Source of the DNA: Escherichia coli
Lineage (GTDB): Bacteria > Pseudomonadota > Gammaproteobacteria > Enterobacterales > Enterobacteriaceae
Length of the DNA stretch: 64,000 bases
Assembly: GCF_003790525.1 (NCBI RefSeq)
Contig: NZ_CP033635.1
Strand: one strand, 5' to 3'
Shown here: in pieces, positions 11,679 to 17,937 of the stretch
How positions within the stretch are numbered: the stretch's first letter is position 1
How the letters are laid out: each line of letters opens with the position of its first letter
Notes under the pieces: generated by a model
What the model saw: the letters and a program-made list of their open reading frames with translations, nothing else
Databases searched by the model: none
What the model was told of the DNA's origin: nothing
Translations under genes and position numbers: made by a program

Positions 11679-12482
11679 ATGAACGCATTATTAAGCAATC
11701 CCTTTAAAGAACGTTTACGCAAGGGCGAAGTGCAAATTGGTCTGTGGTTAAGCTCGACTACTTCTTATATGGCAGAAATTGCCGCCACCTCCGGTTATGA
11801 CTGGTTGCTGATTGACGGGGAGCACGCGCCAAACACCATTCAGGATCTTTATCACCAGCTACAGGCGGTAGCGCCCTATGCCAGCCAACCCGTGATCCGT
11901 CCGGTGGAAGCCAGTAAGTCGCTGATTAAACAAGTCCTGGATATTGGCGCGCAAACTCTACTGATCCCGATGGTCGATACTGCCGATCAGGCACGTCAGG
12001 TGGTGTCTGCCACGCGCTATCCTCCCTACGGTGAGCGTGGTGTTGGGGCCAGTGTGGCACGGGCTGCTCGCTGGGGACGCATTGAGAATTACATGGCGCA
12101 CGTCAACGATTCGCTTTGTCTGTTGGTGCAGGTGGAAAGTAAGACGGCACTGGATAACCTGGACGAAATCCTCGGCGTCGAAGGAATTGATGGCGTGTTT
12201 ATTGGACCTGCGGATCTTTCTGCCTCGTTGGGCTACCCGGATAACGCCGGGCACCCGGAAGTGCAGCGAATTATTGAAACCAGCATTCGGCGGATCCGTG
12301 CTGCGGGTAAAGCTGCTGGTTTTCTGGCTGTGGCTCCTGATATGGCGCAGCAATGCCTGGCGTGGGGAGCGAACTTTGTCGCTGTTGGCGTTGACACGAT
12401 GCTCTACAGCGATGCCCTGGATCAACGACTGGCGATGTTTAAATCAGGCAAAAATGGGCCACGCGTAAAAGGTAGTTATTGA
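11679..12482 (+). CDS. rhmA: RhmA, 2-keto-3-deoxy-L-rhamnonate aldolase (HpcH/HpaI family)
   Basis: Track ORF 11376-12482 is an over-extended frame. The real start is ATG 11679 ([24 protein letters not shown]…), giving 267 aa. Confidence 0.85.
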
Positions 12483-12488
12483 TATCAA

Positions 12489-12516
12489 AGGCCCATGGGG
12501 ATCGGCTGTGGGCCTG
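12489..12516. terminator. Hairpin between convergent rhmA and ypaA
   Basis: aggccca…tgggcct inverted repeat just after the rhmA stop. Confidence 0.45.
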
Positions 12517-12522
12517 TGTTAA

Positions 12523-12708
12523 TTAGTGGTTATTCGCTGCCAGATCGGCTTCGCTTAGCTGAGTGGCCGCGAGCACCTGGTCACGATCAATGCCCTGTTC
12601 CAGCATGCGCAAGGCAATTTTAATGGCTTGTTCATGCATGCCTTCTAATTTACCCTCCTGCCAGCCAATTTGGTGTCCTTCCTGCCGTAGCCGTTCAGCA
12701 ATAGTCAT
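12523..12708 (-). CDS. ypaA: YpaA, small Rpn C-terminal-domain protein (stand-alone copy of the rpnB 3-prime module)
   Basis: 61-aa ORF ([39 protein letters not shown]…) near-identical to the C-terminal region of the adjacent rpnB. About 190 bp of DNA is a direct repeat of the rpnB 3-prime end, including the AAGGAGAG Shine-Dalgarno. Confidence 0.8.
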   Translation of the reverse strand: MTIAERLRQEGHQIGWQEGKLEGMHEQAIKIALRMLEQGIDRDQVLAATQLSEADLAANNH

Positions 12709-12720
12709 TAATCTCTCCTT

Positions 12721-13680
12721 TTAATAACAGTTCGGAATATCAGCATCAGTGAGTTGGGTTGTCGCCAGCACAATCTCACGTTCAAAGCCCTGTTCCAGCA
12801 TGCGCAAGGCAATTTTAATGGCTTGTTCATGCATACCTTCTACTTTGCCTTTCTGCAAACCCTCCAACTTCCCCTCCTGCCAACCTTCAATCTTACCCTT
12901 CTGCCAGCCAATTTGATGCCCTTCCTGCCGCAGCCGTTCAGCAATAGTCATTAATCTCTCCTTTTGTAGTGGTGAACGTTCGGCAATCTCCTCAATAAAA
13001 CGGGTGAAACGGGAGGTATCGCCGCATTGCAGCAGATAATTAAACAGCGTTTGTAGCTGGCTGTCATTAGTGAAGCCTCTAACCAAAAGCGTGGTGATCC
13101 TGTCGACCATACCGATTAAATCGCGGTCGCGAATATGCTTTTGAATCAGTTCCAGCAGAGCTATACGCCGATGTTGCATGATCTCATCGTCAGGTACGAT
13201 GGTGATATCCACCAACGGAAAAGCTTCGGTGTACAACTGCCGGGCAAGTTGCGGATCGTCAAACTCATCCAGCCAGTTGAGTGAGTACGGGTAGGGCGAG
13301 GTTTCGCCATGATAAAACAGCAATGGTACCACCAGCGGGACTCTGTCATAGCCTTTGTCCAGGTGACGCTGCATGGCGGCAGTGGCATAGCGCATTAGCC
13401 GAAAAGCCATATTCTTTTCTGCAGAGCTTTGATGTTCAATCACGCAGTAGATATAACCGTCACCCTCGCTGGTTTCCACAGACCACAAAACATCCGAGTA
13501 GTAAGCGCGTAAACTTTTTTCAATAAAGCTGGTGGGTTCCAGGCGTAAGGTTTGCAGGTTGCAAAGCTTGCGCAGCGGCTCTGGTAGATGTATTTCCAGA
13601 AAATCTCGCGCCGTATCGGGCGAGAACATAAAGGTTTTAAATACCGCATCATGCGGGGAGGAGGTTGTTGATTCGGTCAT
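12721..13680 (-). CDS. rpnB: RpnB (YfaD), recombination-promoting nuclease, transposase_31 / PD-(D/E)XK family
   Basis: 319-aa ORF with conserved Rpn N-terminus ([18 protein letters not shown]…) and a C-terminal repeat region ([27 protein letters not shown]). Confidence 0.85.
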
Positions 13681-13872
13681 GGTTGTCCGTCACCTGATAT
13701 TTATGATGACGCGACATTACGGTTATCCCGGGCCTTTGACATCTGCCAGTTTCAGCCTTTGCGAGACGTTTTCAGAGGAATTTTCACTGCGTTGCAACGT
13801 ATACATTGGGCACGGAATCGTGTGCGCAAAAATGCCCGGTAACCACATGCTTACCGGGCATCAGAAGGGAGT

Positions 13873-17937
<4,065 letters not shown>

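Follow-up and report, generated by a model that had tools for sequence, protein, structure and literature searches.

The chromosomal rpnE–ypaA locus of Escherichia coli: a nested small protein and its free-standing, repeat-variable copy

Introduction

The closest described systems are the L/S pairs of RpnA, RpnB, RpnC and the plasmid-encoded RpnP2. RpnE has three features in common with them: a PF04754 nuclease domain followed by a helical domain at the C-terminus, an internal start that is in frame and preceded by its own Shine–Dalgarno (SD) sequence, and four-residue repeats that vary by strain. Zhong et al. (2023; PNAS, PMC10400941) established that RpnS proteins are intragenic antitoxins. 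Unlike for RpnE, toxicity, neutralization by the short form, complex formation and, with RpnP2, phage protection have been demonstrated in these systems; toxin and antitoxin activities were shown for RpnA, RpnB, RpnC and RpnP2 only, never for RpnE, and phage protection only for the plasmid RpnP2. Meydan et al. (2019; bioRxiv 10.1101/520783) located internal initiation sites within each of the five rpn genes, and remarked that the C-terminal product of RpnE resembles YpaA. Some rpnC loci also carry a free-standing copy downstream, like ypaA.

As in type II toxin–antitoxin modules, the proposed RpnE system would consist of a protein antitoxin that blocks a protein toxin and is encoded in the same transcription unit. 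Unlike in type II modules, the Rpn antitoxin is encoded in frame within the toxin gene and equals the C-terminal domain of the toxin, and a second, separate antitoxin-like gene (ypaA) lies downstream of rpnE. Here, we analyse this module in a 64,000-nucleotide stretch of an E. coli chromosome, hereafter the window. A preliminary description of the locus, made from the sequence alone, had taken Rpn nucleases to be toxins restrained by intragenic small proteins, rightly so according to Zhong et al. (2023), and had named the gene rpnB.

Identity of the locus

The nuclease gene occupies the following positions:

12721–13680, minus strand: rpnE (yfaD), full-length open reading frame for RpnE-L, 319 aa (open-reading-frame list, NF007418, K-12 b2244)
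13054–13659, minus strand: PD-(D/E)XK nuclease domain, residues 8–209 (Pfam PF04754, Transposase_31/YhgA-like)

The long open reading frame scores 706.6 bits against NF007418, the PGAP model that names rpnE (cut-off 583), and 416.8 bits against the RpnA model, which is below the RpnA cut-off. The gene order in the window is glpC–rpnE–ypaA–yfaU, which matches the b2244/b4543 neighbourhood of K-12, and the K-12 orthologue is annotated rpnE b2244. The model score and the synteny together assign the gene to RpnE rather than RpnB; rpnB is yfcI, a different gene from rpnE (yfaD; Kingston 2017), so the name in the preliminary description has to be corrected. The mix-up matters because toxicity and antitoxin activity have been demonstrated for RpnB and not for RpnE. 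The K-12 rpnE/rpnE-S/ypaA genes lie at the same locus between the same neighbours, glpC and yfaU, and share the internal start M244 and the 16 nt upstream of it; E. coli strain 165 is 100% identical to the window. Most probably, the region is the rpnE–ypaA module of the E. coli chromosome and belongs to the Rpn family of 'gene-within-a-gene' toxin–antitoxin systems.

RefSeq names the rpnE product an 'ISNCY family transposase', and a 14-nt inverted repeat (12481–12494 and 13730–13743) flanks the module, as would suit an insertion sequence. However, in 5,420 of 5,426 E. coli genomes the gene occupies one and the same place on the chromosome, it is found on no plasmids, and its glpC neighbour is also present in E. 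fergusonii and in a cryptic Escherichia clade. Among the 33 fetched loci in which the upstream flank is present, only 4 have an exact upstream arm of the inverted repeat, and the four loci of E. fergusonii and Escherichia sp. E4385 have neither arm in exact form. Zhong et al. (2023; PMC10400941) found neither terminal repeats nor target duplications, and no autonomous mobility. We rejected the transposon reading on account of the fixed position and the poorly kept repeat, which by our estimate is at about the level that chance would produce in a region of this size; that rpnE encodes a transposase is extremely improbable.

Internal start and RpnE-S

Two features define the short form within rpnE:

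12958–12963, minus strand: Shine–Dalgarno AAGGAG of the internal start, which is also codons K240–E241 of RpnE-L (pattern match)
12721–12951, minus strand: rpnE-S, in-frame internal open reading frame from M244, 76 aa (translation and frame check)

The AAGGAG motif is followed by a 6-nt spacer and an ATG at codon 244 of 319, in frame. The same 15-mer, AAGGAGAGATTAATG, stands at the start of both rpnE-S (12949–12963) and ypaA (12706–12720), and in the K-12 allele the 16 nt preceding each of the two ATGs do not differ from those in the window. In the 64-kb window, the pattern AAGGAG-N5–7-ATG occurs four times, compared with 1.15 occurrences expected. Thus, the preliminary description was correct in seeing one strong ribosome-binding context at both copies and an internal ATG in the frame of the nuclease gene, as the identical 15-mers, the translation and the frame check show; the positions it gave for this ATG (12953–12955) are spacer bases, and the codon lies at 12949–12951 (M244).

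Its proposal that a C-terminal small protein is made independently is right in outline, and the experimental support comes from the K-12 allele. In K-12, both RpnE-S and YpaA are made, as indicated by Ribo-RET and Onc112 initiation peaks and by SPA-tag immunoblots (Meydan et al. 2019; Zhong et al. 2023). RpnE residues K240, E241 and M244 have the same layout as the RpnA residues whose mutation abolished RpnA-S (Zhong et al. 2023, PMC10400941). Since translation of RpnE-S is published for K-12 and the start context is identical, RpnE-S is probably translated from 12949–12951 in the window as well. Ribosomes would then start not only at the first codon of rpnE but also at the codon 244 ATG, using the AAGGAG of K240–E241, to give the C-terminal domain alone. 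The long first helix of RpnE-S, with its glycine-every-fourth-residue repeats, would pair with the same domain in RpnE-L and hold the nuclease inactive.

Direct repeat and free-standing ypaA

The segment that contains the internal start is repeated downstream of rpnE:

12739–12965, minus strand: direct repeat, upstream copy, inside rpnE (repeat families D1 and D3, global alignment)
12544–12722, minus strand: direct repeat, downstream copy, ypaA with its SD (repeat families D1 and D3, global alignment)
12715–12720, minus strand: Shine–Dalgarno AAGGAG of ypaA, immediately after the rpnE stop codon (pattern match, sequence read)
12523–12708, minus strand: ypaA (b4543; rpnE-Ss), free-standing RpnE-S paralogue, 61 aa (open-reading-frame list)
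12489–12515, minus strand: GC-rich hairpin between the convergent ypaA and yfaU, a probable terminator by its structure

Two gapless matches link the copies: 91 nt at 88% (12875–12965 with 12632–12722) and 123 nt at 81% (12739–12861 with 12544–12666). Aligned globally, the two units (245 and 200 nt) agree at 166 of 190 aligned positions (87%), and the one gap, of 48 nt, equals four 12-nt repeat units. The ypaA ATG lies 12 nt after the rpnE stop codon, and the SD is identical to that of the internal start. The tandem repeat that had been described is therefore present, with rpnE and not rpnB as its parent, and ypaA is indeed free-standing, although the two copies are unequal in length and the last ~20 residues differ between RpnE-S and YpaA. 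K-12 YpaA has the same 61 aa as the window protein, with two residues differing. The stand-alone copy had been seen as an unusual twist; it is not new, since Zhong et al. (2023; PMC10400941) named ypaA 'rpnE-Ss' and described its loss by deletion or fusion, and the resemblance had been remarked by Meydan et al. (2019).

Since just 14 nt ahead of the ATG belong to the repeat, the duplication did not bring along any promoter sequence from upstream. A scan of 12400–13900 showed a single terminator-like site, the hairpin at 12489–12515 (RNA fold −12.1 kcal/mol, z −2.07), and none between rpnE and ypaA. Because the duplicated segment carries no promoter and no terminator precedes ypaA, ypaA is probably translated from the same transcripts as rpnE; the rpnE/rpnE-S/ypaA transcripts would end at the hairpin. 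An internal transcription start is indicated by dRNA-seq data as cited by Zhong et al. (2023; PMC10400941), the sole source for an internal promoter since a sigma-70 consensus scan of 12400–13900 found no promoter-like site. An Rfam search of 12300–13900, with E up to 1, returned no RNA element.

A further reading, which follows RefSeq, takes ypaA as a decaying, non-functional remnant of the duplication. It draws on annotation only ('pseudogene' in K-12 and 'incomplete, missing N-terminus' in PGAP genomes) and on the absence of ypaA as a separate unit from ~42% of genomes. However, each of the 24 two-copy E. coli loci sampled has intact ypaA and rpnE-S open reading frames with both SDs, as do E. 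fergusonii and Escherichia sp. E4385, so that ypaA retains its reading frame, ATG and SD in every two-copy locus examined. The decay by frameshifts in other strains that would have spoken against the preliminary description is seen in none of the 24. (In three loci, an apparently broken rpnE was discarded, as the breaks are stretches of N from scaffolding of the assembly and not mutations.) Every change in length is a multiple of 12 nt, and YpaA has been detected by SPA tagging, with published initiation peaks. Over 23 two-copy loci, piN/piS is 0.11 for ypaA, 0.13 for rpnE-S and 0.065 for the nuclease domain; ypaA is under purifying selection. Approximately 58% of 5,426 complete E. coli genomes (roughly 3,133) keep both copies. 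The remaining ~42% have one rpnE gene fused to a ypaA-type tail; where ypaA is 'lost', its tail is kept as the C-terminus of rpnE. We consider decay very improbable. As a separate downstream open reading frame with its own SD and under selection, ypaA qualifies as a free-standing RpnSs gene, and it would have arisen by an old tandem duplication of the unit that encodes RpnE-S, whose ribosome-binding site it shares unchanged.

Variation of the four-residue repeats

The four-residue repeats lie in one tract:

12832–12906, minus strand: variable four-residue (12-nt) repeat tract, RpnE-S codons 16–40 (24-nt periodic family D2)

The tract has a glycine at every fourth residue, and the 48-nt gap in the alignment with ypaA falls within it. 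Counting extra repeats relative to the shortest allele, the window has five in RpnE-S and one in YpaA, whereas K-12 RpnE-S (56 aa, compared with 76 aa in the window) has none. Over the sampled loci, RpnE-S carries 0, 1, 2, 3, 4, 5 or 8 extra repeats and YpaA 0, 1, 2, 4, 5 or 6, and the protein matches have lengths in steps of 4. In the window and 22 fetched E. coli loci, sampled without regard to repeat number, the RpnE-S and YpaA counts are unequal in 23 of 23 cases, with the pairs (5,1), (0,1), (5,0), (5,2), (3,1), (8,6), (8,4), (1,4) and (4,2). Unequal pairs also occur in E. fergusonii (5,2), in Escherichia sp. E4385 (0,4) and in metagenomic loci (0,5 and 2,5).

This mismatch bears on the role of YpaA. 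In RpnC, only equal repeat numbers neutralize, and a mismatch of one repeat abolished neutralization (Zhong et al. 2023, PMC10400941). The idea of YpaA as a plain second dose of the same antitoxin is therefore uncertain: the repeat numbers of YpaA and RpnE differ, and a single-repeat difference was sufficient in RpnC. A tentative reading, to which we give a minority weight, is that YpaA, with a repeat number that evolves independently of that in RpnE, is not a spare cognate antitoxin but a poor RpnE-L binder, either a stored C-terminal cassette or a neutralizer of a different partner. The unequal counts within and beyond E. coli and the RpnC rule are in line with it, as is the presence of the same five-repeat core in RpnE-S of some strains and in YpaA of others. 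The first 17 codons of the two copies show 0–3 nt differences, and the tails have a synonymous divergence of 0.34–0.48; near-identical starts with diverged tails point to exchange of the 5′ half. The fused rpnE genes, with their ypaA-type tails, would also fit a cassette. However, random pairing of the 11 distinct combinations yields no match with P = 0.44, so the mismatch in the sample is not significant. Matched pairs, sought with synthetic matched-pair queries, do exist: strain A30 has a (2,2) pair, as its translation confirms, and strains ECO20 and ECO21 gave matches of 4,4 length. These refute an absolute rule that the repeat numbers are never equal; among the best 15 matches per query, no (0,0), (1,1) or (5,5) pair was found. 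In addition, the matching rule is known from RpnC alone, and Zhong et al. (2023) had already reported that ypaA can be lost by fusion.

Helices with a glycine at every fourth residue, as in RpnE-S from G11 to G39, are also found in FliH/YscL (PMC2674601) and Yae1–Lto1 (PMC4523923), where, as in RpnE-S, the repeat number varies between relatives and the motif serves protein–protein association. These proteins are unrelated to RpnE, and the likeness is in the motif only: FliH models score 20.8–31.2 bits on RpnE-L against cut-offs of 180–293, and a Yae1_N match (E 0.31) is far below the family threshold. According to the account in Zhong et al. (2023), gain or loss of a four-residue helix repeat (the TAEL repeat number) alters specificity in the EcoR124I and EcoR124II specificity subunits; as far as that account goes, those repeats space DNA recognition, whereas Rpn repeats tune protein–protein pairing.

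Nuclease, small-protein fold and the K-12 allele

The PF04754 match of RpnE-L (E 6.6e-88) spans residues 8–209 and covers the model in full. The residues needed for RpnA activity, as listed by Kingston (2017), are all at the RpnA positions in RpnE-L: D11, D63, E82, Q84, R94 and the PDDE motif (D165). A structure search with full-length RpnE found no solved structure at E 0.01 or better. RpnE-L would be a DNA endonuclease of the PD-(D/E)XK type whose C-terminal domain is helical. Judging from its homologues RpnA, RpnB, RpnC and RpnP2, RpnE-L may be toxic, RpnE-S or YpaA may neutralize it, and RpnE may have an anti-phage role. PADLOC v2.0.0 matched neither small protein; its only match, a weak one, was between the C-terminal region of RpnE and a candidate model named 'putative invertase' (E 1.4e-5).

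The C-terminal domain is assigned to the RpnS fold, a three-helix bundle (HTH_Rpn_C). YpaA matches the RpnA-S crystal structure (PDB 7TH0) end to end in sequence (E 1.1e-4), and 7TH0 is also the best PDB match of the AlphaFold model of RpnE-S (pLDDT 73, helix over residues 3–53), with a probability of 0.99 but an E of only 0.096. PF27070 HTH_Rpn_C is recorded on YpaA homologues in precomputed annotations only, and a local Pfam-A search gave no significant match for YpaA. We regard the fold evidence as moderate because the RpnE-S model shows two helices rather than three.

The helix-turn-helix class of this domain (PF27070), together with weak matches of that type (HTH_7, E 0.19), could also suggest that the small proteins are unrelated in role, for example DNA-binding regulators, beside a catalytically dead RpnE relic. 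Over-expressed K-12 RpnE caused no toxicity, SOS induction or recombination stimulation (Kingston 2017), three assays in all, and RefSeq names the K-12 product 'inactive'. However, the catalytic residues are all retained, and the nuclease domain is under the strongest purifying selection of the three parts compared above. RpnE-S is co-expressed from K-12 constructs; Zhong et al. (2023) made the point for other paralogues that constructs with K-12 rpn genes co-expressed RpnS. The K-12 allele itself is also atypical: it has Q107 and L155 in the nuclease domain, compared with the consensus L107 and P155 in the window, and the substitutions L107Q and P155L occur in none of the 39 other alleles sampled. 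Exact K-12 60-mers occur in only ~355 of 5,426 genomes, and among the best 25 matches every identifiable strain is a K-12 derivative. We therefore judge a dead relic improbable. As a smaller, related possibility, RpnE could be actively toxic in wild strains such as the present one, and appear 'inactive' in the literature only through L107Q and P155L of K-12.

Conclusions

The locus is real, ordinary and already known. Initiation inside rpnE, the small protein that results, its free-standing ypaA copy, variation in the repeats and loss of ypaA by fusion have each been published (Meydan et al. 2019; Zhong et al. 2023). We add the conservation and selection of ypaA, the frequency of the two-copy form, the mismatch of repeat counts, and the K-12 substitutions L107Q and P155L. 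The value as a discovery is small, and the practical value lies in annotation. The RefSeq labels to be mended are 'ISNCY family transposase' for rpnE and pseudogene or N-terminally truncated fragment for ypaA, and the intragenic product rpnE-S is absent from annotation. More speculatively, and with less confidence than the cassette reading as a whole, YpaA may be a stored, usually repeat-mismatched cassette whose recombination with rpnE-S, through the near-identical 5′ halves of the two, swaps repeat tracts and tails and so acts as a diversification device. If so, new RpnE-L/S pairings would arise for a defence nuclease, including the fused single-copy form found in ~42% of genomes.

Identity and organization of the rpnE–ypaA locus

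The published toxin/intragenic-antitoxin model is the best-supported reading of this locus. In this reading, full-length RpnE (RpnE-L) would be a PD-(D/E)XK nuclease, the product of the internal start at M244 (RpnE-S) would be its in-frame antitoxin, and YpaA is an ancient, maintained and free-standing paralogue of RpnE-S. The locus, flanked by glpC and yfaU, comprises two entries in the ORF list, separated by 12 nt.

12721-13680, minus strand: long ORF, rpnE, 319 aa
12523-12708, minus strand: short ORF, ypaA, 61 aa

The window is identical to E. coli strain 165 over 1.4 kb (100%), and 5,420 of 5,426 complete E. coli genomes carry the locus, on the chromosome every time. The counterparts in K-12 MG1655 are rpnE (b2244, formerly yfaD) and ypaA (b4543). 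The 319-aa protein contains a full-length Pfam PF04754 domain, falls short of the NCBIfam RpnA model and scores 706.6 bits (cut-off 583) against NCBIfam NF007418, the model used by PGAP for naming rpnE. The preliminary description had named the gene rpnB; NF007418 and the K-12 counterpart identify it as rpnE, and rpnB is a separate gene, yfcI (Kingston 2017).

As had been described, the 3′ part of the nuclease gene is directly repeated downstream as ypaA, in gapless matches of 91 nt (12875-12965 versus 12632-12722, 88%) and 123 nt (12739-12861 versus 12544-12666, 81%). Global alignment of the repeat units (245 and 200 nt) gives 166 identities over 190 aligned positions, with a single 48-nt gap that falls within a 12-nt-periodic tract. 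The same ribosome-binding context had been noted at both copies, and both indeed open with an identical 15-mer, AAGGAGAGATTAATG. A pattern search for AAGGAG-N5-7-ATG returns four occurrences across the 64-kb window, where 1.15 would be expected. The internal ATG is in frame inside the nuclease ORF, at codon 244, and defines a 76-aa product; its position is 12949-12951 and not 12953-12955 as first reported. The repeat begins just 14 nt 5′ of each ATG, so the duplicated unit has the ribosome-binding site and no upstream promoter sequence. YpaA is probably translated from the same transcripts as rpnE, since no terminator-like site was found between the two genes and a hairpin (12489-12515) lies 3′ of ypaA. 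A 14-nt inverted repeat (12481-12494 and 13730-13743, 93% complementary) brackets the module, with one arm abutting the terminator hairpin. Of 33 fetched loci that reach into the upstream flank, only four have an exact upstream arm, and in the four loci from E. fergusonii and Escherichia sp. E4385 (L029-L032) both arms deviate; the arrangement is probably due to chance.

Relation to the Rpn family and the K-12 allele

In retapamulin ribosome profiling, all five rpn genes have peaks at internal start codons that are in frame, and the internal product of rpnE is very like that of the independent gene ypaA (Meydan et al., 2019, bioRxiv 10.1101/520783). These starts yield small RpnS proteins that block long-form toxicity and SOS induction and, for RpnA, also DNA cleavage in vitro (Zhong et al., 2023, PMC10400941), in agreement with the earlier description of Rpn toxins restrained by intragenic small proteins. 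In the same study, the plasmid system RpnP2 gave phage protection, free-standing YpaA (termed rpnE-Ss) was detected via SPA tagging, and some rpnC loci had the same arrangement with a free-standing copy. Toxicity, neutralisation and defence have been demonstrated for RpnA, RpnB, RpnC and RpnP2, not for RpnE. The free-standing copy, presented earlier as a twist, is real and had already been published (Meydan 2019; Zhong 2023). Thus, the rpnE–ypaA architecture, including this copy, is real and already known, with two corrections made here, to the name of the gene and to the position of the ATG. Window and K-12 agree in the 16 nt preceding each start codon, so the published initiation data should apply to the window allele.

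Window RpnE has D11, D63, E82, Q84, R94 and the PDDE motif, all at RpnA residue numbers; the list of residues required in RpnA was taken from Kingston 2017. The Shine–Dalgarno sequence (SD) of the internal start is encoded by K240-E241 and the start is M244; the RpnA counterparts of these three residues are those mutated by Zhong et al. (2023, PMC10400941). K-12 RpnE showed no recombination stimulation, viability loss or SOS induction (Kingston 2017), and RefSeq labels it inactive. Compared with the window, the K-12 protein (L001) has the substitutions L107Q (codon 13360-13362) and P155L (codon 13216-13218). The window and all 39 other sampled alleles have L107 and P155. Exact K-12 60-mers around the two sites occur in only 355 and 356 of the 5,426 genomes, and every identifiable strain among the top 25 matches shown is a K-12 derivative (MG1655, C600 and J53, for example). 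The 'inactive' label may therefore be specific to K-12.

Maintenance of ypaA

The RefSeq annotation of this locus is at odds with the literature. There, rpnE is named 'ISNCY family transposase', and ypaA is entered in K-12 as a pseudogene; other entries flag it 'incomplete; missing N-terminus' and begin the feature directly after the rpnE stop, and only a few genomes have it as an ordinary CDS (WP_000150333, WP_000150331). Intragenic RpnE-S is never annotated in the RefSeq loci examined. The sequence evidence says that ypaA is neither a pseudogene nor an N-terminally incomplete fragment. Decay by frameshifts in other strains had been raised as a possibility; the ORF, ATG and SD are intact in all 24 sampled two-copy E. 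coli loci, as well as in E. fergusonii and Escherichia sp. E4385. The πN/πS values are 0.11 for ypaA and 0.13 for rpnE-S (23 loci: the window and 22 fetched), and 0.065 for the nuclease domain over all sampled alleles.

A database search returned 228 proteins, and nearly all of the 120 listed are 50-101 aa long; the lengths mostly follow four-residue steps, and the matches listed carry PF27070 (HTH_Rpn_C). YpaA matches the crystal structure of RpnA-S, 7TH0, over its whole length (E 1.1e-4). The AlphaFold model of RpnE-S, of moderate confidence (pLDDT 73), shows a helix over residues 3-53 with the repeats inside, and its best PDB match is also 7TH0 (probability 0.99, E 0.096). Separately, RpnE residues 208-300 (12781-13059) give a weak PADLOC match (E 1.4e-5) to PDLC01084 ('C3a178, putative invertase'), a model that forms part of a candidate defence system; this probably reflects a shared helix-turn-helix.

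Variation of the four-residue repeats

Extra four-residue repeats were scored against the shortest allele, and the window has five in RpnE-S and one in YpaA. The (RpnE-S, YpaA) pairs in 23 loci (the window and 22 fetched, chosen without regard to repeat number) are (5,1), (0,1), (5,0), (5,2), (3,1), (8,6), (8,4), (1,4) and (4,2); further pairs, from other Escherichia species and from metagenomic loci, are (5,2), (0,4), (0,5) and (2,5). No equal pair was found in any of these sets, which is notable because a one-repeat mismatch abolished neutralisation in RpnC (Zhong 2023, PMC10400941). Random pairing of the observed values, however, gives zero matches with a probability of 0.44. Searches with synthetic matched pairs identified a genome with (2,2), which translation confirmed, and two genomes with 4,4-length matches. 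The data support independent variation of the two tracts, with numbers that are usually different, and not a rule against equal pairs.

One and the same five-repeat core belongs to RpnE-S in some strains (L003, L011, L012) and, joined to a ypaA-type tail, to YpaA in others (L036, L042, L043), which suggests that the 5′ half has been exchanged between the copies. The window core (12832-12906) is one residue apart from it, QKGK for QEGK. Glycine recurs at every fourth residue from G11 to G39 in RpnE-S (12832-12906) and from G11 to G23 in YpaA (12637-12663). This is a GxxxG/GX3 repeat helix resembling those of FliH/YscL and Yae1-Lto1, which explains sub-threshold matches to NCBIfam FliH (E 1e-7) and Pfam Yae1_N; the likeness is absent from the main text of Zhong 2023 (PMC10400941).

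Evolution of the duplicated unit

When the two copies of one genome are compared, rpnE-S and ypaA show a synonymous divergence of 0.34-0.48 over their last 31 codons, and the within-species value of about 0.09 is far below this. Over their first 17 codons, they are just 0-3 nt apart. Both tail types are also found beside glpC in E. fergusonii and a cryptic Escherichia clade. By these comparisons, the duplication is older than E. coli, as the shared position in other Escherichia indicates, and the 5′ halves were homogenised afterwards. Loci L029-L032, from E. fergusonii and Escherichia sp. E4385, lack the rhamnonate genes yfaU, yfaV and rhmD; downstream of ypaA come a short IclR-type fragment, yfaY and yfaZ, in that order.

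When the presence of ypaA was compared across strains, 3,133 of 5,426 genomes matched the whole rpnE-stop/ypaA-start junction, and 5,410 had the ypaA-type tail together with the flank downstream of it. The ~42% that lack a whole junction match, among them the O157:H7 and E. coli B genomes sampled, have a single rpnE whose tail and repeat cores are of the ypaA type; this fits the recombinational fusion reported by Zhong et al. (2023, PMC10400941). The single-copy rpnE of E. coli O157:H7 TR01 (L019, NZ_CP033605) has an odd tail, …DLAPLSLQ, whose identity to the ypaA-type 3′ end is just 79.7%; L017, also O157:H7, ends in the usual ypaA-type tail. In E. coli UTME-10 (L022, NZ_CP157104), rpnE is broken by an IS2 element about 211 codons in; the fetched stretch contains neither the RpnE-S nor the YpaA start, so the entire C-terminal part has been displaced or lost along with ypaA.

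Implications

L107Q and P155L might account for the inactivity of RpnE in K-12 assays.
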